Positions 2,885 to 23,397 of a stretch of DNA of 30,411 nucleotides are shown piece by piece. The DNA comes from a virus (Duplodnaviria; Heunggongvirae; Uroviricota; Caudoviricetes), in the IMG/VR virus record IMGVR_UViG_2562617133_000007; one strand, given 5' to 3'. Position 1 is the stretch's first letter, and each line of letters begins with the position of its first letter. The notes below the pieces were generated by a model. It was not told where the DNA came from. It saw nothing but the letters and a program-made list of their open reading frames with translations, and ran no database searches. The position numbers and the translations under genes were made by a program.

Positions 2885-3087
2885 TTTAGACATTATTTAT
2901 ATGGCTGTGTGGTTTAAAAATGCGATTTCACAGCCGCAATCATAGGGATATATTAGTGAGTTACTAGATGCGAATATGAACAACCGTTAAACGGTATATG
3001 TATAGGTAGGTAAGTATATACCTACAATTAAAAGGAGAAGTGTGATATAAATCCGCCATCCCGATTTGACTTTTCACGGAGGAAAAC

Positions 3088-3424: not shown

Positions 3425-4117
3425 ATGAAGACTCCGAGAGGCATTCGTAATAATAACCCCGGTAATCTTGATAAAGGATCACCGTGGCAAGGTCTGGTTG
3501 CGAATCCAGACGAACCGCGCTTTTGCACGTTTAAAGACCCTGTTTGGGGGATTCGTGCGCTGGCGGTGACTCTAATTACCTACCACGATAAACGTCGCGC
3601 AAAAGACGGCACAAGTATCGATACCATTCGTGAAGTTATTGAACGCTGGGCACCGCCGAATGAAAACAATACTGACGCCTACATTAATGAGGTGTCTAAA
3701 GCCGTTGGTGTAACCGCAGACATGATCATCGATCTGCATGATTACGACATCCTTCGACCTTTGGTTGAGGCAATCATTCGCCACGAGAATGGCCGAGGCC
3801 CGCTAAAAACGCTGAACACCTGGTATGCGGCAGAAGTTATTGAGGAAGGTCTGCGTCGAGCTGGCGTTGTTAAGCCGGTGAAAACCGTGAAGGCTGTTCC
3901 TGTAACTAAAGAAACCGCAGGCGCAACTGTTACAGCAGGTATTGGTCTGGCGCAGCTGGCCGATGTTATGCCGCAGGTTTCCGCTGCTATGGATAAAGCA
4001 CAAGGTCATATCTCTAGCGGGGATACAGTACGCATCATCTTCGGTATTGCCACTATTGTTGTGGCAGGATTCATTGCCTGGTCGCAGGTAAGAAAACACC
4101 AGAAAGGGATGGTCTAA
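3425..4117 (+). CDS. Hypothetical protein (RNNNPGNL motif) with C-terminal membrane anchor; possible cell-wall hydrolase by position only
   Basis: Start moved to the ATG at 3425, which has an AGGAG RBS 7 nt upstream; the longer track ORF starts at 3398. About 140-aa globular N-domain, basic/Val/Lys linker, then TM segment IIFGIATIVVAGFIAW. Lies between the holin-like gene and the spanin-like genes. Confidence 0.5.
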   Translation: MKTPRGIRNNNPGNLDKGSPWQGLVANPDEPRFCTFKDPVWGIRALAVTLITYHDKRRAKDGTSIDTIREVIERWAPPNENNTDAYINEVSKAVGVTADMIIDLHDYDILRPLVEAIIRHENGRGPLKTLNTWYAAEVIEEGLRRAGVVKPVKTVKAVPVTKETAGATVTAGIGLAQLADVMPQVSAAMDKAQGHISSGDTVRIIFGIATIVVAGFIAWSQVRKHQKGMV

Positions 4118-4118
4118 T

Positions 4119-4370
4119 ATGCTAGGCAGCCTGATGACAAAGCTAAAAGTTGCTTTGATTACGCTGGCTGCCGTTCTTTTCGTTCTTGTCGGCGCTTACA
4201 CGATGGGCGGGAATGCGGCGCGACGAGCAATGGAAGAGAAGGCAAAACAGGAAGACAGAAAACGACTTCAAAACACAGTGAAAGTGGTGAATGAGACGAG
4301 CAGTAAAATACGTCAGAAAGATGCTTCTGCCGTTCATCGTGAGTTGTATGATAAGTGGGTGCGTCATTAA
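4119..4370 (+). CDS. Rz-like inner-membrane spanin candidate
   Basis: 83 aa with N-terminal TM helix (LKVALITLAAVLFVLVGAY) followed by a charged, coiled-coil-like region. Its 3' end overlaps a lipoprotein ORF in another frame. Confidence 0.5.
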   Translation: MLGSLMTKLKVALITLAAVLFVLVGAYTMGGNAARRAMEEKAKQEDRKRLQNTVKVVNETSSKIRQKDASAVHRELYDKWVRH

Positions 4371-4506
4371 ACCACAAACAGCCAGCGTGTTGTTCTGCGA
4401 TGGGGCTGAGCCTATCTATATCAGCAATAATGATGTAATGACTGAAGAAACCGAACGCCAAATCCTTTTTCACAATACGATGGGAGAGAGGGTTTGTGGT
4501 TGGTGA
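4291..4506 (+). CDS. Rz1-like outer-membrane lipoprotein spanin candidate
   Basis: Signal peptide with basic n-region and lipobox ISGC (MRRAVKYVRKMLLPFIVSCMISGC); short Cys-containing mature part. Begins inside the 3' end of the Rz-like ORF in the +1 frame, the classic overlapped spanin arrangement. Confidence 0.45.
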   Translation: MRRAVKYVRKMLLPFIVSCMISGCVIKPQTASVLFCDGAEPIYISNNDVMTEETERQILFHNTMGERVCGW

Positions 4507-4513
4507 TGTCGAA

Positions 4514-4535
4514 GTTCCCCTCAAATGAGGGGAAC
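4514..4535. terminator. Hairpin between convergent genes; possible bidirectional terminator
   Basis: GTTCCCCTCA / TGAGGGGAAC perfect inverted repeat between the + strand spanin genes and the - strand GNAT gene. Confidence 0.45.
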
Positions 4536-4538
4536 ACA

Positions 4539-5060
4539 TTATTCTTCGAACAATTTTTCGATAGATTTTGTAGGATAGAACAAAGAACGCTCGTTGTTAC
4601 CAACCAGCTGGATAAAGCCTAAACTTTTATAAAACGCCTTGGCTTTGTCATTTAACGCCTCAACGAAAAGTCCATGAATGCCTACAGCAAGAGATGCATT
4701 GTACACAACGCGCATTGCATGTGTTACAAGCATTGAGCCAAATCCTTGACCTTGAAGGGACTTGTCCAAAGCCAGCCTACCCAAAGTAACACTTGGAACA
4801 TTCCGATAAGGAACCTTCTTTTGTTTGCTTCTTGAAGGTAAGGACTCCTTTTCAAAACAACTACCTGACAAAGTGTAATATCCTAACACTTTTGGCCTTT
4901 CTTCTTGAGTGCAAAGCACATAAGCACGAAGAATTTTTCCCTCATGCTGCCTTTTTAAGTGGTTGGCTAAAAAGGCGTTTAGTGACTCTTCGCCGCAATC
5001 AAAACCGTTTAGATCATAATCTTTCTCTCCAGAGAAAATCTCTATCGTTGTATTGCTCAC
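4539..5060 (-). CDS. GNAT-family acetyltransferase toxin (TacT/AtaT/KacT-type)
   Basis: 173 aa with GNAT acetyl-CoA-binding signature (QGQGFGSML ... AKAFYKSLGF). Lies immediately downstream of, and co-oriented with, a DUF1778-like antitoxin ORF. Apparent GTG start. Confidence 0.8.
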   Translation of the reverse strand: MSNTTIEIFSGEKDYDLNGFDCGEESLNAFLANHLKRQHEGKILRAYVLCTQEERPKVLGYYTLSGSCFEKESLPSRSKQKKVPYRNVPSVTLGRLALDKSLQGQGFGSMLVTHAMRVVYNASLAVGIHGLFVEALNDKAKAFYKSLGFIQLVGNNERSLFYPTKSIEKLFEE

Positions 5061-5375: not shown

Positions 5376-5655
5376 ATCTCCTCTGTTCAAACTGAGTTTT
5401 CGACTCAAAAATTACTTTAAAAGGCTATAGCCCATTACGTGTGCATTATCAAATTGTGTACGGCATATCACCGTACTTGTAATATAGAGGTCATTGTTAC
5501 TTTTTTCAACAGACAAATACAAGCTATGATTGCCAATTGTTAACCACAACCTACCATTTAACCTTTACACCGTAGCCGTAGGCATTTAGGCTATATCACA
5601 TATAAGAAAACAAGTTGTTTCAGACGATAATAATAGACGCAAAGGGAACTCTCCA

Positions 5656-6324
5656 ATGACCAAGATCTTTGTGGTTGGCGGCACAAAGGGCGGGCCTGGC
5701 AAATCCACCGTTGCCCAGCAAATTGCCGTTTGCCTGAAAGTCAAAAAGAAGAAGAAGGTTTATATCACTGATATAGATATTCAGCGCACGACAACAAGCT
5801 GGTGTGAAGACCGTCGACAGAACGAAGACCTTGAGCTGATTCCTTTTGCATACGTTCAGGATGACATCATTAAGCACCTAAAATCGCTTCAGGGTAGAGC
5901 TGAGTTTGTAGTGGTAGATGCTGGTGGCTTTGACTCCGAAATTCAGCGACAAGCGATGCTGATGGCCGACGTTATCATTATCCCGCTTCGTCCTAAGCGT
6001 CGTGATTTGAAATCTCTGCGTGACATCGATCCTATTATCGACAATGTTCGTAATGTAAACGATAAAGTGAAGGTCCGCGCGGTCATGAACCAGTGCCCGG
6101 CTTTGCCATCACAAGTGTCTCGCATTCTGGCGGCTAAAGAGATTGTTGAGACGTTTGGCATCGAGTCTGCGCCAGTCAATCTATATAACCGCAACGTCTA
6201 TGATGATGCGGAAGAGTCTGGTCGTTCTATCTTTGAAATGACCGGTAGCGAGCGCGACAAAAAGGCGGAAGCCGAGTTTGAAGAATTTGTAGATTATCTG
6301 TTGAGTCTGGAGGAAGAAGAATAA
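5656..6324 (+). CDS. parA: ParA-family partition ATPase
   Basis: Deviant Walker A VVGGTKGGPGKST near the N-terminus; 222 aa; AAGGGA RBS; stop overlaps the start of the downstream small basic protein gene. Confidence 0.85.
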   Translation: MTKIFVVGGTKGGPGKSTVAQQIAVCLKVKKKKKVYITDIDIQRTTTSWCEDRRQNEDLELIPFAYVQDDIIKHLKSLQGRAEFVVVDAGGFDSEIQRQAMLMADVIIIPLRPKRRDLKSLRDIDPIIDNVRNVNDKVKVRAVMNQCPALPSQVSRILAAKEIVETFGIESAPVNLYNRNVYDDAEESGRSIFEMTGSERDKKAEAEFEEFVDYLLSLEEEE

Positions 6325-6734: not shown

Positions 6735-8441
6735 ATGGAATCGATAGAAGTATTTTTAAAAAATTTTTTGGACTCAGATCATCGGGTTGCTGTCATAAAA
6801 GGAAATTGGGGAGTAGGTAAAACGCATTATTGGAATAGCTTTTATACTAAACATTCTAAAAAATTAGATTTTAATGCATATTCATATGTTTCTTTGTTTG
6901 GAATAAATTCTATTGGAGACATTAAAAAAGCTCTTTATCATTGTGCCACACCAATTAATGAAAAGAAATATAAAGAACTGATTTTATCTGAAACGGATCG
7001 AACTATGATTCGTTATAGAAATGGGTTTTGGGGATGGTTGAAATACAACTCCTTGTCAAAATTTTTAATACATTTTGGAAAGAACGATTTTTTTGGGTTC
7101 AAAACTGATAATCTGCTGTCATCTCTTGAGTATAAATTTGTTAATAATTATTTGGTTTGCATTGATGATATTGAACGAAAAGGTAGTGCGCTAGAAATTA
7201 AAGAGATTATGGGGGTAATTGATGAGTTGGCAAGAAGAAAAAATTGCAAGGTTGTTCTAATATTAAATGAAGATAACTTACATGAAGAAACTGCACAACA
7301 ACAGTTTTTAGAGTATAGAGAAAAAATAATTGATGTGGAAATAAAATACGATCCCACGCCTGAGAAAAACTTAAGAAAAGTTTTTTATGAGACTGACCCT
7401 GATTTTCTTTTGTTAAAAAACCTAGCAAATGATTTAAACATCAAAAACATTAGAATATTAAATAAAATAAAATCATCTCTAGTTATATTTAGAGATGTGC
7501 TAAAGTTAGCAGAGGATAAGGTTAGAGAAAGTTTTATTAATAGATTGGTCTTATTTTCAGTGGTTTACTATTTTGGTGTTCCTAGCGTTGATTATGCTTC
7601 ATTTAAGGAGTCAATCAAAAATATACATGCATTCGACTATATGTTAGATGATAAAGATGAAAAGGAAGAAGTTAACTCTGTATATTCATTTGTTAATAGC
7701 CTTGATATTATTTATGAACGAGCAGAAAGTGCTTTCGATGATGATATAGATTTTTACCTTAAGAACGGTTATGTGTCTTCTGAAAGCAATATTCTAAATA
7801 TAATAAAAGAAAAAAATGAACAATATAGAGATAATAGGGTTTTATGTGAGGTTTATAAAATTTGGGATGTTTTTAGAAACTCTTTTAAAGATAATGAATC
7901 AGAGTTTATTTTTCAAATTGAGCGCGTAATTAACGATAGTCTGTTGCGTATACCAATTGGACAGTTCGTAGGTTTAATAAATGTCCTAATCAAATTGGAT
8001 AGAGATTGTAATAATATTATAGAGGCATATGCAGATGCTTTTGTTAATAAAGACAATGCGTATGCTACATTTAATTCTTTGCGAGTAGAGATCTTCGGAA
8101 ATGAAGAATTAGGTTTCAGAATTGAAAAAAAATTGAAAGATAGAAATCCAGATGACTATAACTTAGATAAAATTATAAAAAAAATAGCTGGTGGAAGATT
8201 TAACCATAGTGATGTGAATATTCTTAACAGTTTTTCTAAAGATGATTACGTAAACTGGATATTATCCTGTGATCAGGATGCTTTGAATTTAGTAGAAGAG
8301 ACTATGCTCAAGTTCAAGGGTATGCAACACCCGACAGACGAACAGAAGAGCATCACTGATAAAGCAATAGAAGCTTTGGAGGAAGTTGCTTCAAAATCAA
8401 CACTTAATAAGCTGCGTGTTAATAAAATACTCAATCATTAA
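6735..8441 (+). CDS. KAP-type P-loop NTPase-like protein (AT-rich cargo gene)
   Basis: 568 aa. Walker A GNWGVGKT at residues ~23-30 and Walker B-like LVCIDDIER about 115 aa downstream. Hand-sampled GC roughly 20-40% versus ~55% in the adjacent parB-like gene. Confidence 0.75.
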   Translation: MESIEVFLKNFLDSDHRVAVIKGNWGVGKTHYWNSFYTKHSKKLDFNAYSYVSLFGINSIGDIKKALYHCATPINEKKYKELILSETDRTMIRYRNGFWGWLKYNSLSKFLIHFGKNDFFGFKTDNLLSSLEYKFVNNYLVCIDDIERKGSALEIKEIMGVIDELARRKNCKVVLILNEDNLHEETAQQQFLEYREKIIDVEIKYDPTPEKNLRKVFYETDPDFLLLKNLANDLNIKNIRILNKIKSSLVIFRDVLKLAEDKVRESFINRLVLFSVVYYFGVPSVDYASFKESIKNIHAFDYMLDDKDEKEEVNSVYSFVNSLDIIYERAESAFDDDIDFYLKNGYVSSESNILNIIKEKNEQYRDNRVLCEVYKIWDVFRNSFKDNESEFIFQIERVINDSLLRIPIGQFVGLINVLIKLDRDCNNIIEAYADAFVNKDNAYATFNSLRVEIFGNEELGFRIEKKLKDRNPDDYNLDKIIKKIAGGRFNHSDVNILNSFSKDDYVNWILSCDQDALNLVEETMLKFKGMQHPTDEQKSITDKAIEALEEVASKSTLNKLRVNKILNH

Positions 8442-8512: not shown

Positions 8513-8622
8513 AAAGACACCCACCAGAACAAGTCCCTTCCGTTTCCACTTCCAAAAACTGCCACCAGTCGCTATCATCCGCTCATTGTGATAAGTAAGT
8601 AACTACCTACCAGGTGAGCCAC

Positions 8623-17527: not shown

Positions 17528-18261
17528 TTCGTTGAGACGCGACTGTTTGAACTTAAATACAAGTGCAAACGAAGAAGTCTATCTGGCAGTAGCCTAATAA
17601 GCCAAACACCAGCGAGGTCAGTTTCCAGCCTCGTTACCGAAATGGGACACACTGAGCGAGTGTGATTGCAGAACGCAGGAGAGGGCATGATACGGCACCA
17701 CCCATGCCCTCTCCGATGAAGTAACAGAATGGGCGGTCGGTATATTTCCAACTCCATATCACTCCCGGATTCTTAGCCACTGACCGCCCATCCTGTTACG
17801 TCATTTTGTTCAATTATGTCGTTTATACTGGGTTAAAAAGCGGCGACGTAGCCCGGCTGGTATGGTTAGCCAGCACACAACGTTGAGGCCATTACATTTT
17901 TATCAATTCTAAGGTTCTATTCACAGAGATACTGGCGAACGTTGATATGTAACATGTTGGGCAAACATTCAATCGGGGTAGTGGCCTCAACGTTGTGAAG
18001 ACAGGATTGTTGTGTAGGTTTAACCACTGTTGCCATTGGTGCCTGTTTTCACAACAAATGATTCCATACACCGCATTATGTAAATTACAAAGTAGGTGCT
18101 GTCCTCAGAAACATCATCTACTTAAAGATTTTGCCTTCTATTGAGCGAAGTCGAAAACGTCTGGCACTAACGAAAAGTGCAAGTAGCGGTGCGTTTATTG
18201 GCAAAAACTAACACCGCCGCGATTGGCACTGCTGAGTAATAAATACTGGCAGTGCTGAATT

Positions 18262-18336
18262 GATGGTGTAGCTCAGCGGTAGAGCAGTTGGCTGTTAACC
18301 AACTGGTCGGTGGTTCGAATCCACCCACCATCGCCA
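18262..18336 (+). tRNA. tRNA-Asn (anticodon GTT)
   Basis: Hand-folded cloverleaf: acceptor GATGGTG/CACCATC, D stem GCTC/GAGC, anticodon stem GTTGG/CCAAC with loop CTGTTAA, T arm GGTGG-TTCGAAT-CCACC, encoded CCA. Confidence 0.85.
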
Positions 18337-18341
18337 ATTTA

Positions 18342-18428
18342 GGGGAGTTAGTCCGTAGAGGTAGCGGTGTAGACTGTAAATCTACTGTCATTGCGACTCG
18401 GGTGGTTCGACTCCATCACTCCCCACCA
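18342..18428 (+). tRNA. tRNA-Tyr (anticodon GTA), type II with long variable arm
   Basis: Acceptor GGGGAGT/ACTCCCC; anticodon stem GTAGA/TCTAC with loop CTGTAAA; T loop TTCGACT; encoded CCA. The D arm folds atypically by hand. Confidence 0.7.
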
Positions 18429-18432
18429 AATT

Positions 18433-18508
18433 GCCGGTTTAGCTCAGTTGGTAGAGCAGTCGCTTTGTAAGCAAATGGCCAGCGGTTCAAGTCCGTTAAC
18501 CGGCACCA
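18433..18508 (+). tRNA. tRNA-Thr-like (anticodon TGT) with a weak anticodon stem
   Basis: Acceptor GCCGGTT/AACCGGC; D arm GCTC-AGTTGGTA-GAGC; T arm AGCGG-TTCAAGT-CCGTT; CCA encoded. The anticodon stem GTCGC/GCAAA pairs at only 3 of 5 positions. Confidence 0.55.
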
Positions 18509-18802
18509 ACATAATATTGAGAACATTGGCGTAACGGGTTCATATCCCAATTTATGAATATAATGTTGCGTTGCAGCGTGACAACCTGTGTTCTCAACAT
18601 TGTGGTGAATGCACAGGCTGATGTGCGACGTAGAAGCAAGCGGATGAACTGCCTGAAGGCCGCTAACGTAGGCAATGCCGGAGATCAGCACCGGCCATCA
18701 CAATTTGGCTCTCTTGCAACAGCATAACGCTGAAATACGTCCAACCTGGTGCGGTCTGATCACCCGCCGTTAGCTCCACGAAACGGAGCACACAACACAA
18801 TT

Positions 18803-18889
18803 GGAGAGTAGGGAGCATGGTGCTCAAGCGGTCTTGAAAACCGTCCCATTGTGCAAACGATGATGGTTCGATTCCATTACTCTCCGCCA
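18803..18889 (+). tRNA. tRNA-Ser (anticodon TGA), type II
   Basis: Acceptor GGAGAGT/ACTCTCC; anticodon stem GCGGT/ACCGT with loop CTTGAAA; long variable arm; T arm GATGG-TTCGATT-CCATT; CCA encoded. Confidence 0.65.
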
Positions 18890-18890
18890 G

Positions 18891-18970
18891 ACACAGCGTT
18901 GAGCGGTTTGGCCTTTTAATCAACCAGATTAAGACTCCGCTAACATAAACCAGACCGCTCAACGCTGTGA
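18891..18970. repeat. Long inverted repeat immediately 3' of tRNA-Ser
   Basis: ACAGCGTTGAGCGGT (18893-18907) and ACCGCTCAACGCTGT (18954-18968) are perfect reverse complements; pairing extends to about 20 bp around a ~40-nt loop. Confidence 0.6.
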
Positions 18971-19043
18971 TAGACAATTACGGCAGACGTTCTTAACCAT
19001 AGCTTGCTAACATCCTAGCAACACTTTTTTCAGCGCAAAATTC

Positions 19044-19066
19044 AAAGGGGCTTCGGCCCCTTTTTT
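19044..19066 (+). terminator. Rho-independent terminator
   Basis: AAAGGGGC-TTCG-GCCCCTTTTTT: GC stem, tetraloop and T-run. Confidence 0.75.
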
Positions 19067-19182
19067 GATTTGTTGACACTTAGTTATATTCACGTATCGT
19101 TTTATCGCTTTGATCCGAGGCAGCGTTAGACTGCCTTCATGTTCCTGATTAGATCGCAGCAGTTAAACATGGAGACAAATTA

Positions 19183-19737
19183 ATGAAGAAGTGCCATCTC
19201 AATATTTTCGCATCTCTAATAATTGCGTTAACACTAACAGGGTGTAACGAATCTGAAATAGATGAATTAACGTTAATAGGCAAAGATAAAAGTGAACTTG
19301 AACAAAATTATAAAGCCCAATTCAAGAAGCTAACACAAAATGTTGAAGTGTTTATTCTTCAAGATAAAAATAGTCCGACTGAAAAAGAACCGCATACGAA
19401 TGGCAACCTGATCGACGGAAAAGTCGAAATGTCATTAACCAGTAATGTTGGTAAGTATACATTCATCCAGATAAGTGAAATGCTGACAAAGGAGTACGGA
19501 AAACCCGTTGCTACAAAAGATCGTGTTTTTAACAGAGAAGCAGTATCTGGCATGGACTGTATTGAAACTAAAACTTGTGGAGCTGGTAAATATTATGAAA
19601 TCTTTCGAGGGAAGGATAGATTGATTATGGTGTCAAACGGTGCCGGTCTTTTACACGAAAAGGAAGGTGTAACACTACTCACCATCACCGATAAACAATT
19701 TAAATTTTCTCGTTTAGAAGAAGATAAAATAAAATAA
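19183..19737 (+). CDS. Lipoprotein of unknown function (AT-rich cargo)
   Basis: Lipobox LTGC in MKKCHLNIFASLIIALTLTGC; 184 aa; GGAGA RBS; AT-rich relative to the backbone. Confidence 0.7.
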   Translation: MKKCHLNIFASLIIALTLTGCNESEIDELTLIGKDKSELEQNYKAQFKKLTQNVEVFILQDKNSPTEKEPHTNGNLIDGKVEMSLTSNVGKYTFIQISEMLTKEYGKPVATKDRVFNREAVSGMDCIETKTCGAGKYYEIFRGKDRLIMVSNGAGLLHEKEGVTLLTITDKQFKFSRLEEDKIK

Positions 19738-19988
19738 TGACAGGGGCGTATACGCCCCTATCTAAAATTTGACATTAAACATATATTGCATCTGGTATCA
19801 GCAATTTTTGTGCGCTATGTAAGTCCTTACCTGCAATCAGTCTCATAAATATCGGATTTTACGTAGCGTACCATCGTTACAGCAAGCATCAAATTATTCA
19901 CTGACATTTATGCGCTGAAAACAGCGTTACTTACCGTAAAATAACAATTTTCAGCGCAAAATTTAAAGAGGCTTCGAATCTGCACAAC

Positions 19989-21317
19989 CTATTGTGCGTA
20001 CTCGCCCAATTTTAATGTTTCACGCTTATATTCATCAACTATCTCACATGATTTAATATAGATATGGCACAATAGGTTATCACTATCATCATTATCGTTT
20101 ATTGCCATAAGTGCCAACTTTTTCTCATATTCATCGATCGCATCACTCAACTGATCACCTGTAATTACATCTGACTCACTCGAGAAATATAACTGCCCAA
20201 GATTTACCGCATTTTTTCCAGTTTTTCTTTGCTCTATGTAATTTTTAATCATATCCTTCACATCCTTTTCACTACTCAGTATTTCACTTTCGAAATGGAC
20301 ATGCTCTGAAATCGACGCGACTCTGCAACCGATCAAACGATGAATATAGTCATCAATAGACGTAACACTATCATTAGCTTTTTTTAGTGCTTCATCAAAA
20401 ATGCTCTTTACCTCATTTGGCAAATTTTTAAAATAATCATCAATTAAACCAGATAATGGTGTTTGGTAGTTCATTAATACCGATGAAGCAACTTGCGGAC
20501 GACGAACCACCCAGATTTCTTTGACTTCAACTTGAGAATAATATTCCTTAATCACGTTCCAAAAGTATTTTAACATCTTGGTTTTAAATATTTTATCAAA
20601 TCTATCCTTTATAAATAGCTCTACTTCAGGCATGCTTGAATAAGCATCATCAAAGAATATTTCATCTTTGAAAAAATCATATTTATTTAATAAAGCATAC
20701 AGTTTTTTTGAATCCAGCGGTTCACGAGAATCGATGTCCAATCCAAAAACTGCAATAACCAACTTCATTTGCGGTGGTATTTTTCCACTCAATTGAATAA
20801 TATATTCCATTTTTTCATCAAAACAATTTCCATCTATGTAAAATCGGTTATCTACATAGACTAATATATTGGTAATATGTTTTATGTACTGAATAACCTC
20901 ATGCTTTCTTACCAATGGATAAAAAAACGAATGCATTTCATTTTTATTAAATTGTTTTTTTGTCTGTTCAATGATTGGTATGACATTATTGTACAACTCA
21001 TCATGCTGATTTAATAAAGTGTCAAACCATTCTTTGAAAGAATTTTTTCTCATCTCAATCAATGAATCGGTAGTTATCCTAACGGCCTCCAGTGCTGCCT
21101 TTGCACTTTTTCTTGCTTCATAGGCGTTCCACGCTGTTGCACAAAAAGCCGCTGTCGTTATAAAACTACTCAATACAGCAATTTGGTCTGTAACCTTCCA
21201 ATCTTGAAATGGCTCAAGTAGTAAACCTAAAAACAAAATTATTATGGAAAACATTAGAATTGCAACAGAAATAAAAACAGGCATGTATGCTCTCGTACTT
21301 ACCATTGTTAGTTGCAT
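19989..21317 (-). CDS. Two-TM membrane protein with large cytoplasmic domain, unknown function (AT-rich cargo)
   Basis: 442 aa; predicted TM helices PVFISVAILMFSIIILFLGLLL and IAVLSSFITTAAFCATAW in the first ~70 residues; remainder Lys/Asp/Glu/Tyr/Phe-rich; strongly AT-rich. Confidence 0.7.
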   Translation of the reverse strand: MQLTMVSTRAYMPVFISVAILMFSIIILFLGLLLEPFQDWKVTDQIAVLSSFITTAAFCATAWNAYEARKSAKAALEAVRITTDSLIEMRKNSFKEWFDTLLNQHDELYNNVIPIIEQTKKQFNKNEMHSFFYPLVRKHEVIQYIKHITNILVYVDNRFYIDGNCFDEKMEYIIQLSGKIPPQMKLVIAVFGLDIDSREPLDSKKLYALLNKYDFFKDEIFFDDAYSSMPEVELFIKDRFDKIFKTKMLKYFWNVIKEYYSQVEVKEIWVVRRPQVASSVLMNYQTPLSGLIDDYFKNLPNEVKSIFDEALKKANDSVTSIDDYIHRLIGCRVASISEHVHFESEILSSEKDVKDMIKNYIEQRKTGKNAVNLGQLYFSSESDVITGDQLSDAIDEYEKKLALMAINDNDDSDNLLCHIYIKSCEIVDEYKRETLKLGEYAQ

Positions 21318-21386
21318 TAAATATTAACTAAATTAAGTTGTGATTAACAGGCAAGTTTACGATGTATTGCAGACATTAAATAGGTT

Positions 21387-21414
21387 TTTACTTACCTATC
21401 TTTTATAGTAATAT
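21387..21414 (+). promoter_or_regulatory. Promoter-like motif (copy 2) upstream of the glutaredoxin gene
   Basis: TTTACT-N16-TAATAT; near-identical to the element at 17499-17525. Confidence 0.35.
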
Positions 21415-21456
21415 TTATTTTCTGGTTAAGTAACACATAATTATTATGAGGTAAAC

Positions 21457-21702
21457 ATGACTATCGTTATCTACGGACGAGATAACTGCTCATATTGCAA
21501 ACGTGCGGTCGAGCTGGCGAAACAACTAAAGGGACACGGCTATGGTGATTATGAGTACATCGACATCACCACTGCCGGTATCGATAAGGAAAAACTTAGC
21601 GAAATTGTTGGCAAACCGGTAGAGACTATCCCCCAGGTACTGATCGATGGCCAACCGATTGGCGGATACACAGAACTGGCTGCATACGTCACCACTCTCT
21701 AA
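21457..21702 (+). CDS. Glutaredoxin (Grx1-like)
   Basis: Active site CSYC near the N-terminus (IYGRDNCSYCKRA) and C-terminal GKPVETIPQVLIDGQPIGGYTE, which I recognise as resembling E. coli glutaredoxin 1. GAGGT RBS. Confidence 0.85.
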   Translation: MTIVIYGRDNCSYCKRAVELAKQLKGHGYGDYEYIDITTAGIDKEKLSEIVGKPVETIPQVLIDGQPIGGYTELAAYVTTL

Positions 21703-21706
21703 TTTT

Positions 21707-21731
21707 AACGGCTCACAGGAGCCGTTTTTGT
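21707..21731 (+). terminator. Rho-independent terminator after the glutaredoxin gene
   Basis: AACGGCTC-ACAG-GAGCCGTTTTTG. Confidence 0.7.
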
Positions 21732-21912
21732 TCCCACCAAACTCACGCTTGGTTCCCTTAAAATTCAAAAAACAACGGCTAAATGATTCCATACCTACTA
21801 TGTATGGAATCATTGCTGAAAATGAGTTACTTTTACTCTTGATCCTATAAGAATCTATGCCTAATATACTGTTTACTTATACAGTGCATCGGCGTAACTC
21901 GGTGATTGTCAT

Positions 21913-23016
21913 ATGAAAAATAGCTTTGACAGAGCACGCGCTGCGGAGAACACCTCAAAAGAGGCGATAGAGTATCTCGAAAGAGCATCTCAAATGCAGG
22001 CCGTTATGATCTCCCAGGTCAGCAATGACATGAGATTCTCGGACGCATTCATGTTATTCACTCGCTTATCTCTGCTGATAACCAGACGTCGGCCAGAGAT
22101 CGCTGTTCATTGTATTTTGATACATGTTTTGCCGCACATTGCCGATGTAAAAGTAAGTGACATTAATAGGTTCATGGTGAACCAACTGGTCAACCCACTA
22201 ATACTGGATGGCAAAATTGTTATGGGCCGCCGCGTTTTCTCTCTGATGAAGCAGTTCCTTAGCTGGTGCGCCTTCCAGGGGATGATAGACGTGTCACCGT
22301 TAAACGATATGTCACTTAACAAAGTTGCCGGTGGCGCAAAGCCCACACCTCGCGAGCGGAAGCTGACCGACGCAGAGGTATGGGTGTTCTGGAATATATG
22401 GGACTACTTCAATGTGTGCGCTGGTACAAAATGGGCGGCCAGGCTATGTCTTGTATCCGCAAGACGACCTGACGAAGTACTGCGGGCTAAAAAAAGTGAG
22501 TTCAATCTTAAGCGTGGGGTTTGGAATCAAGGCAAGAGGAACAAATCTGCCCGTGAGCATTCTCTGCCTTTAAGCTCATTAATGCGCACTTGTATTGAAG
22601 AGTTGTTCGAATATGGTAAAGACAGCCAGTGGCTCGTGCCTTCGAATAAAAAAATCGGGAAAGACCTTCCTATGTCTAAAGTGGCAATAGCCCAGGCATT
22701 ACGTCGTATTCTGGAACGACCAGAACTGATGGAGCTTGAGCCATTTACACCCCGAGATTTGCGCCGTACTGCGCGTAGTTACTTCCCAGCATTAGGCATA
22801 AGCCAGGAGGTATCACGTAAAATCATGAACCACAGTCTTGAGGGGATAGATCGGGTCTACGACCGGCACGATTATATGGACGAGATGCGAGACGCCTTAG
22901 AAAGTTTCTCGACGTACATCGCATCAATCGTAGAGCAACCGGATTTAGACGAAATTGACCACAAATTTAAGGGAGATCGTCTATCAACAGAGCTTATTCG
23001 TGTAAATTTTTCATAG
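21913..23016 (+). CDS. Tyrosine recombinase (integrase or resolvase)
   Basis: C-terminal catalytic signature: SARRPDE (box I Arg), RDLRRTARSY, NHS and RVYDRHDY (Tyr nucleophile region). No obvious N-terminal arm-binding domain. Confidence 0.75.
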   Translation: MKNSFDRARAAENTSKEAIEYLERASQMQAVMISQVSNDMRFSDAFMLFTRLSLLITRRRPEIAVHCILIHVLPHIADVKVSDINRFMVNQLVNPLILDGKIVMGRRVFSLMKQFLSWCAFQGMIDVSPLNDMSLNKVAGGAKPTPRERKLTDAEVWVFWNIWDYFNVCAGTKWAARLCLVSARRPDEVLRAKKSEFNLKRGVWNQGKRNKSAREHSLPLSSLMRTCIEELFEYGKDSQWLVPSNKKIGKDLPMSKVAIAQALRRILERPELMELEPFTPRDLRRTARSYFPALGISQEVSRKIMNHSLEGIDRVYDRHDYMDEMRDALESFSTYIASIVEQPDLDEIDHKFKGDRLSTELIRVNFS

Positions 23017-23397
23017 AGACTTTATGGCCTCAACAACCTTTTGTGATGCGCCTTTCTCTTTACCGAATCGCTCGTTATATGCAGCAAGAACCTGTTTTTC
23101 GTCCTCGTTAAGAGGAGCAGTGCCTTCTTTGTATAAAAATGCTGCGAGTTCGGGTTGGCGTTCTTCCAGCACCATCATCATAAGACGACTTGGCTCAATG
23201 CCCAGTGCCAGCGCCAGCGGACGAACCTTATCGATAGGCAAAGGAATTTTGCCGCTTTTAATTAAAGAAAGGTTGTTGGCGTTTTTATACCCAATTGTTT
23301 TGGCTATCTGGGCCTGGCTCATAGGTGAGGATTCAATCAACCCTGCGATAAAAGCAGCGTAGCGACTTTCTATAAATTCAATCTTGTTATCAGACAT
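23011..23397 (-). CDS. XRE-family helix-turn-helix transcriptional regulator
   Basis: HTH SQAQIAKTIGYKNANNLSLIKSG; 128 aa; AAAGG RBS; convergent with, and overlapping, the recombinase 3' end. Confidence 0.7.
   Translation of the reverse strand: MSDNKIEFIESRYAAFIAGLIESSPMSQAQIAKTIGYKNANNLSLIKSGKIPLPIDKVRPLALALGIEPSRLMMMVLEERQPELAAFLYKEGTAPLNEDEKQVLAAYNERFGKEKGASQKVVEAIKSL

Follow-up and report, generated by a model that had tools for sequence, protein, structure and literature searches.

The stretch analysed here, hereafter the window, is the 30,411-nucleotide IMG/VR virus record IMGVR_UViG_2562617133_000007. Between an array of tRNA genes and the glutaredoxin gene grxA it carries two convergent genes, one encoding a lipoprotein (19183-19737, plus strand) and the other a membrane-anchored protein (19989-21284, minus strand), together with two copies of a 30-nucleotide (nt) repeat. 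The surrounding backbone is ~96% identical to the Escherichia phages CMS-2020a, Cyrano and PhiR41_1 and ~80% identical to Salmonella phage SSU5, and the complete plasmid NZ_CP083480 (111,656 bp) matches the window with 99.9% identity over the locus. Since this plasmid combines tail, capsid, portal and terminase genes with repB and par genes, alongside nrdAB and dnaE, and since the backbone resembles SSU5-type phages, the window is assigned by sequence to the SSU5/pHCM2-type phage-plasmids of E. coli. The G+C content of the membrane-protein gene is 0.326 and that of the lipoprotein gene 0.35, compared with 0.469 for the whole plasmid, so that the AT-richness noted in an earlier sequence-only reading of the membrane gene is borne out.

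Variable cargo between the tRNA array and grxA

The conserved left backbone of the locus is formed by tRNA-Ser(UGA) (18803-18889, plus strand; found by ARAGORN and Rfam), which closes an array of four tRNA genes (Asn, Tyr, Thr, Ser) and is kept in all relatives examined. An Rfam scan of 17500-22000 returned the tRNAs alone and no other RNA family. In nearly every variant examined, the conserved backbone stops at the terminator of this array. On the right, conservation restarts at the GAGGT ribosome-binding site of grxA (21457-21702, plus strand), with homology among the variants resuming at ~21446. Because the backbone ends at the terminator and begins again at this ribosome-binding site, the slot is delimited to ~19067-21446. 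The sequence-only reading had placed the whole island between the two repeat copies, which does not hold, as these enclose the lipoprotein module only.

The flanks of the region 18900-21500 were matched by 245 plasmids in PLSDB, only three of which have the same content, and the alternative contents were read directly in the relatives labelled L002-L011. In pERB3f3, S. Typhi pHCM2 and Enterobacter, a lipoprotein homologue is followed 30-50 nt downstream by a gene for a 262-amino-acid (aa) protein, while in Citrobacter the lipoprotein gene is present without this neighbour. Many E. coli plasmids and Klebsiella have a single minus-strand gene of 408-432 aa. The lipoprotein and membrane-protein genes occur together in one lineage, that of the window. 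The locus is a swappable inter-operon slot for accessory genes, in agreement with the earlier proposal that cargo is exchanged here.

The 262-aa protein is an HNH-type endonuclease, which matches the PADLOC model PDC-M68A (E 5.7e-25) as well as nuclease effector models and the SduA N-terminal domain. Such a nuclease of 257-263 aa (PDC-M68A E down to 1.8e-25) is the usual downstream neighbour of the lipoprotein gene, as seen in L002 (5881-6669), in L009, which is pHCM2 (4096-4887), and in 12 IMG/VR loci (L053-L065, L067). The lipoprotein and the HNH-type nuclease may be the genuine two-gene module conserved in the slot. A further 242-aa gene, with a weak HEPN-like PADLOC match (RTasHEPN, E 1.6e-4), stands between the tRNA array and the lipoprotein gene in L009 (2694-3422), L008, L058, L064 and L065. 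Among the cargo, defence models are matched by the HNH-like nuclease and, weakly, by the HEPN-like gene; the AbiC/P-like gene described below is linked to defence via profiles alone, and the lipoprotein is unclassified.

This arrangement resembles the hotspots of P2, P4 and similar temperate phages and satellites (PMC13586616), in which conserved flanks surround alternative, AT-rich and separately transcribed cargo. As in moron and defence hotspots, the slot lies between a terminator and the next operon, and nuclease-like and Abi-like genes are found among its contents. Unlike the P2/P4 hotspots, it belongs to an SSU5-type phage-plasmid and is enclosed by a tRNA array and grxA, a position for which no description was found in the literature searched. 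The HNH-type effectors related to PDC-M68A and the SduA N-terminal domain fill this same slot in the pHCM2-type and pERB3f3-type relatives. The window lacks such a nuclease, with the AbiC/P-like cassette in its place.

The 30-nt repeat and the tRNA-array terminator

Copy 1 of the repeat (TTTTCAGCGCAAAATTCAAAGGGGCTTCGG, 19027-19056) is the left arm of the terminator hairpin of the tRNA array. It belongs to a complete intrinsic terminator (19027-19066, plus strand), whose hairpin at 19044-19063 is followed by a T-tract. Copy 2 (TTTTCAGCGCAAAATTTAAAGAGGCTTCGA, 19948-19977, plus strand) lies 11 nt beyond the stop of the membrane-protein gene and ends in ...GGCTTCGA, without a right arm and without a T-tract, in the manner of a degenerate terminator. 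The copies are identical at 27 of 30 positions (three substitutions), and no such pair was obtained in 100 dinucleotide-preserving shuffles. The direct repeat reported in the sequence-only reading, with its three mismatches and its armless second copy, is hereby confirmed. The suspicion that it might be a common terminator fragment can be ruled out, since the motif is confined to this locus, with no further occurrence in either the window or the complete sequence of CP083480 (111,656 bp).

Where the membrane-protein gene is the only cargo (16 IMG/VR and 4 plasmid loci), a single terminator copy is found 15-52 nt past its stop on the opposite strand, and this terminator serves both convergent transcripts. 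In the window, the intact terminator lies 921 nt to the left of copy 2, and the lipoprotein module is located in between. Because the terminator adjoins the stop of the membrane gene in the single-gene loci, copy 2 is a relic of the boundary terminator and a recombination scar, carried along with the membrane-gene cassette. The earlier proposal that cargo was inserted or swapped here by recombination at a terminator-like sequence is supported, as such recombination explains the repeat. Two copies of the motif are present in the lineage of the window only (3 PLSDB plasmids, 5 IMG/VR contigs and 3 Logan contigs), and copy 2 is identical in the sister variants L044-L046. As a clear and datable case of cargo-module shuffling at a terminator boundary, the scar is in itself unsurprising.

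When the window is compared with the pERB3f3-type lipoprotein module, homology stops essentially at the stop codon of the lipoprotein gene (19736). The 210 nt at 19738-19947 had no relatives outside three identical plasmids, and the lineage-specific spacer within them (19763-19947) is found in just the three plasmids that share the cargo. Within this spacer lies a third, inverted and partial copy of the motif region (19908-19931, minus strand), which matches 19017-19040 at 20 of 24 positions and had been overlooked in the sequence-only reading. This inverted copy can pair with 19948-19961 to form a 14-bp stem with a 26-nt loop. It could have originated from template switching during recombination, or it could act as a replacement terminator.

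The membrane protein and the AbiC/AbiP group

The open reading frame on the minus strand extends over 19989-21317, from which the sequence-only reading had deduced a protein of 442 aa. Since all ten full-length sequences in alignment A2 begin with Met-Pro (M1 and P2 invariant) and the RefSeq annotation gives 431 aa, the true start is almost certainly M12 at 21284, and the 11 extra codons are probably untranslated. The reading frame therefore stands, whereas its length is corrected to 431 aa.

The first transmembrane helix (TM1, residues 5-23) is strongly hydrophobic, with a Kyte-Doolittle value of 2.99, and is followed by a candidate second helix (TM2). Acidic residues are located in the loop between TM1 and TM2 and a basic stretch follows TM2, a pattern consistent with a cytoplasmic C-terminal domain. 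The chain continues with a conserved juxtamembrane helix (residues 43-95), in which numerous positions, W52, E56, K62, E77 and W86 among them, are invariant. Behind a degenerate putAbiC-like region (~126-210), the C-terminal part is all-helical and variable. Residues 43-95 share 66-77% identity between alleles whose C-terminal halves are only 15-25% identical. The AlphaFold2 model (predicted local distance difference test, pLDDT, 72.6) is all-helical beyond the N-terminal anchor. Among the non-significant top structure matches were the alpha-pore-forming toxins ClyA, AhlC and SmhA, which are not counted as evidence.

Of all families in Pfam, PADLOC, NCBIfam and PHROGs, only phrog_18168 (PHROGs, E 2.5e-204), a family of unassigned function, was matched significantly by the membrane protein. 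Alleles of this family, 30-56% identical to that of the window, occupy the same position in single-gene loci, and the gene is the sole detected cargo in 16 of 26 IMG/VR loci and in L003-L006. A tblastn search found the family in 138 PLSDB plasmids from six genera (Escherichia, Klebsiella, Enterobacter, Salmonella, Citrobacter and Pantoea), and its slot position is fixed in the SSU5/pHCM2-type phage-plasmids of the first five. With divergent alleles at the same position in so many plasmids, the membrane gene is not unusual cargo. Among the distant members, one is a singleton among housekeeping genes (L038) and another is found on a plasmid- or phage-like contig.

Only 87 relatives were retrieved when 1.84 billion representative proteins were searched with a profile. 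Of the 61 that were aligned, 48 match the Pfam domain PF16872 putAbiC, with a best E of 1.4e-11, and the PADLOC models AbiC and AbiP are matched by eight and five relatives, respectively. Relatives that score between E 1e-19 and 1e-44 on the family profile reach 32-38 bits on putAbiC, for which the cutoff is 22 bits, with the domain at about residues 130-245; two of them, P0027 and P0028, have family-profile E values of 2.8e-44 and 4.3e-37 and putAbiC scores of 32.7 and 36.2 bits. The sister alleles L003 and L004 are borderline on the same model (21.7 and 22.2 bits). When the close family was compared with the putAbiC-bearing relatives by hhalign, a probability of 100% and an E of 6.5e-41 were obtained. 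As this alignment covers 388 columns, the homology extends over the full length, and on this basis we place the membrane protein, by sequence comparison, in the AbiC/AbiP abortive-infection group as a very divergent member. The abortive-infection or exclusion role suggested in the sequence-only reading, which had been drawn from gene layout, has thereby gained homology support.

The lactococcal proteins AbiC, with two transmembrane helices, and AbiP, with one, are grouped as 'AbiC/P' in a 2026 review and have an extra-membrane fold in common (PMC13064643). The same review describes AbiC as lowering the output of capsid protein and AbiP as an RNA-binding protein that disturbs both replication and early transcription. 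The membrane protein of the window fits this layout of one or two N-terminal transmembrane helices and an extra-membrane helical domain. Like AbiC (pTN20) and AbiP, it is encoded by a single gene on a mobile element and has an all-helical domain without a recognisable catalytic fold; it also has no obligatory partner, as the gene is alone in most slot loci and a distant member is a singleton. Unlike them, it is too divergent to match the putAbiC or PADLOC models directly, and it is found in Gram-negative phage-plasmids at a fixed backbone position with strong allelic diversification. With 431 aa it is also longer than AbiC, which has about 344 aa. A literature search for putAbiC and PF16872 gave nothing relevant, and the 'Abi_C' domain of S. 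aureus SadR was rejected as irrelevant, being a different domain of the HEPN type. What is new here is a divergent member of a known, mechanistically obscure group in an ordinary phage accessory slot, and not a new type of system.

The lipoprotein

The lipoprotein gene described in the sequence-only reading proved to be real. It encodes 184 aa of the family phrog_15156 and is preceded by a sigma-70-like promoter (TTGACA, 16 nt, TATCGT; 19073-19100, plus strand), which was recognised as a consensus match only (10 of 12 positions), and by the Shine-Dalgarno sequence GGAGA (19172-19176, plus strand). The signal peptide, MKKCHLNIFASLIIALTLTG|C, has KK in its n-region. Its lipobox L-T-G-C and the Asn at +2 are invariant in 13 homologues, and two further Cys residues, C126 and C132, are also invariant. 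With Asn at +2, the lipoprotein is predicted to be sorted to the outer membrane. Directly after the stop codon lies a G+C-rich 10-bp hairpin (19739-19762), which scores as a terminator on the minus strand and which, on that score, probably ends both convergent transcripts.

The family is tight (61-85% identity), and two large homology searches gave only relatives that are at least 61% identical. It is spread over 108 plasmids, including pHCM2, and was found only in enterobacterial phage-plasmids with the exception of one IncY plasmid. In that plasmid, pLR-25_1 (L010, NZ_AP027501.1), a 67%-identical homologue at 3501-4055 stands in an unrelated context beside a YaaC-family gene, which indicates that the lipoprotein module moves between replicon types. 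In a sister variant with the same architecture and an identical scar, the lipoprotein gene is mosaic.

No significant relatives of the lipoprotein were found in Pfam, PADLOC or NCBIfam, nor in a profile search of the PDB, and its PHROGs family has no assigned function; a literature search for the pHCM2 lipoprotein gave nothing relevant. By these searches, it is an orphan family. The sequence-only reading had invoked phage lipoproteins such as T5 Llp as a precedent. The window lipoprotein does share features with T5 Llp and with Cor of phi80, N15 and HK022, in that all are phage-encoded, have a lipobox signal and are predicted to be located in the outer membrane. However, it has no homology to either, the only match to Cor (PHROGs, E 0.041) covering residues 1-50, which are the signal peptide, and the precedent therefore has no sequence support. 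Moreover, its mature part comprises ~163 aa, and T5 Llp is much smaller.

Interpretation and alternative explanations

We favour, with moderate confidence, the explanation that the slot carries two independent and separately transcribed modules, an AbiC/P-type protein that blocks competing phages and a separate lipoprotein, which were joined by recombination. In this scheme, the N-terminal hairpin would anchor the 431-aa protein in the inner membrane, with its all-helical domain facing the cytoplasm. Expressed by the prophage in its plasmid state, the protein would block competing phages after DNA entry by abortive infection, or it might exclude them at the membrane, possibly at entry. The near-invariant transmembrane and juxtamembrane segment may be what all alleles share as effector or anchor, and phage recognition may be set by the C-terminal part, which is highly divergent. 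The lipoprotein, with its own promoter-like site and hairpin, would serve as an independent lysogenic-conversion, exclusion or host-fitness factor. The combination arose once, by illegitimate recombination that joined a lipoprotein-type slot to a slot with terminator and membrane gene; a second boundary terminator came in with the membrane-gene cassette and later decayed to the armless 30-nt repeat. The anatomy and evolution of the locus, meaning the slot, the scar and the homology, are much more secure than the functional part, and it is for the latter that we infer anti-phage activity, membrane topology and a division of labour within the membrane protein. A bolder version is offered only tentatively: phrog_18168 would be a widespread anti-phage determinant missed by current tools, whose conserved membrane segment kills or blocks and whose hypervariable domain sets specificity, whose alleles, exchanged between near-identical backbones, decide the phage resistance of clinical lineages, and with which the lipoprotein could cooperate in the lineage of the window.

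Several observations weigh against this explanation. The membrane protein of the window is below every Pfam and PADLOC threshold, putAbiC was not detected in it at E <= 0.01, and its link to putAbiC is transitive or profile-based. The mechanism is obscure for AbiC and AbiP themselves, and apparently differs between the two (PMC13064643). As TM2 (residues 34-54) is only moderately hydrophobic (~1.4 by hand calculation), it is considered probable and not certain, so that the first of the two N-terminal helices described earlier stands and the second stands with reservation. The structural model of the membrane protein is only moderate, with pLDDT below 50 for residues 19-68, and a Foldseek search with it against PDB and BFVD returned nothing at E <= 0.001. 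For the lipoprotein, the model (pLDDT 48.7) is unusable for a fold search. In addition, the proposed recombination pathway does not account for the unique spacer of 185 nt or for the third, inverted copy.

The sequence-only reading had treated the two proteins as a joint system, and they could indeed be thought of as one envelope-spanning two-component system, in which the lipoprotein senses or blocks the phage and the inner-membrane protein is the effector. The genes are adjacent and convergent with the hairpin at 19739-19762 in common, at least two sub-variants of the lineage preserve the arrangement, and a predicted outer-membrane lipoprotein stands beside a predicted inner-membrane protein. 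Nevertheless, their co-occurrence is limited to one lineage (3 PLSDB plasmids, 5 IMG/VR and 3 Logan contigs). Among the 26 IMG/VR loci with the membrane gene, the lipoprotein gene is present in 5, all of the window's own lineage, and in none of the other 21; the membrane gene is absent from all 14 other IMG/VR lipoprotein loci, in 12 of which an HNH-like nuclease gene follows 40-50 nt downstream. Since the usual neighbour of the lipoprotein is this nuclease, the two genes are not a demonstrated pair, and the sequences compared give no evidence of a paired system. Convergent genes are not co-transcribed, the two proteins have evolved unequally (61-85% identity for the lipoprotein versus 30-56% for the membrane protein), and the scar marks a secondary junction. 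Altogether, such a system appears improbable to us. An even less credible origin for the arrangement is that the 30-nt copies are att-like sites, left by site-specific insertion of a lipoprotein cassette through the tyrosine recombinase encoded at 21913-23016. The direct repeats do enclose exactly one gene module, and the integrase gene is close by. On the other hand, the loci with lipoprotein and nuclease (12 from IMG/VR and several from plasmids) have no second copy and mostly keep one; the motif is the terminator itself and stands beside the membrane gene in membrane-gene-only loci; it is found nowhere else in the plasmid, and there is none at the right edge of the slot; and the integrase is kept in all variants regardless of the slot content. 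A site-specific cassette of the att or attC type was consequently rejected, as two copies occur in one lineage only and elsewhere there is at most one, the terminator.

For the membrane protein on its own, superinfection exclusion directed at related SSU5-type phage-plasmids, with a block of DNA entry like that by P22 SieA or T4 Imm, has a small though appreciable chance of being the right description. A membrane-anchored protein suits this role, and a fixed backbone position with strongly divergent alleles in ~95% identical backbones fits competition among relatives. However, the distant homologue in L038 is a single gene among chromosomal housekeeping genes and not in a phage, AbiC and AbiP, the only relatives that have been characterised, exert their effects once the DNA has entered (PMC13064643), and no similarity to known superinfection-exclusion proteins was found in PHROGs or Pfam. 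Somewhat less likely still, neither gene may be anti-phage. The lipoprotein would then contribute to host fitness or virulence as a conversion factor, as lambda Bor or TraT do, and the membrane protein would have a role in the life of the phage-plasmid itself, such as in lysis timing, plasmid maintenance or post-segregational killing. The conservation of the lipoprotein in S. Typhi pHCM2 and clinical isolates speaks for this view, as does the fact that PADLOC recognises neither protein. It is at odds with the membrane gene being dispensable and replaceable, many relatives having a nuclease instead, and with the homology of its product to the putAbiC superfamily. Furthermore, the gene has a low G+C content, runs in the opposite orientation and differs extremely between alleles, which is usual for defence cargo but not for core functions.

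If the AbiC/P-type explanation is correct, the locus would allow the AbiC/AbiP group, mechanistically obscure since the 1990s, to be studied in a Gram-negative model that is tractable in E. coli, and the diversity of its alleles could affect the host range of phage therapy and the competition among mobile elements. Clinical E. coli, Shigella, Klebsiella and S. Typhi commonly carry SSU5/pHCM2-type phage-plasmids, and a 2025 survey based on DefenseFinder reported few defence systems in SSU5-type elements. Standard defence annotation misses the AbiC/P-like gene; if this is truly anti-phage, it has been missed in 138 PLSDB plasmids.

Other features of the element

Just past grxA, ~450 nt downstream of the slot, lies the tyrosine recombinase gene (21913-23016, plus strand), followed by a gene for a helix-turn-helix regulator (23011-23397, minus strand); both are kept in the E. 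coli relatives examined, independent of the slot content. On the other side of the slot, the sequence at 18493-18791, from tRNA-Thr to tRNA-Ser, is ~82% identical to a region of phage P1 annotated plp/upl, which likewise stands beside the tRNA-Asn and tRNA-Thr genes of P1. This likeness indicates that the tRNA neighbourhood is common to two different groups of phage-plasmids. In L005 (pM-199-4197), which holds a 56% allele of the membrane gene, a blaCTX-M-199 insertion is located at 5648-6215, on the far side of the tRNA array and ~2 kb away from the slot.

A 20-nt palindrome of the form ATAGGTAAGTA-N3-ACCTAT occurs four times in the window (3006-3025, 8591-8610, 17483-17502 and 21380-21399) compared with 0.05 expected, and a relaxed pattern gives 13 sites in the full plasmid compared with 0.48 in shuffles. 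The sites that were compared with the annotation are all intergenic, and each of the two variable slots has one at its right edge. The copy at 21380-21399 (minus strand) is located between the divergent membrane gene and grxA, and a related palindrome was seen upstream of grxA in the aligned alleles. The palindrome probably serves the SSU5-type backbone as an operator or promoter element, with the copy at 21380-21399 marking the start of the grxA operon.

A second AT-rich island (6735-8441, plus strand; G+C content 0.295) encodes a 568-aa KAP-family P-loop NTPase, which matches Pfam KAP_NTPase (E 6.6e-6) and the PADLOC candidate PDC-S49 (E 2.1e-21). This region is at least 80% covered in only 23 of 643 plasmids with matching flanks, and others have different genes, for example DUF2971, so that it is a second variable slot.

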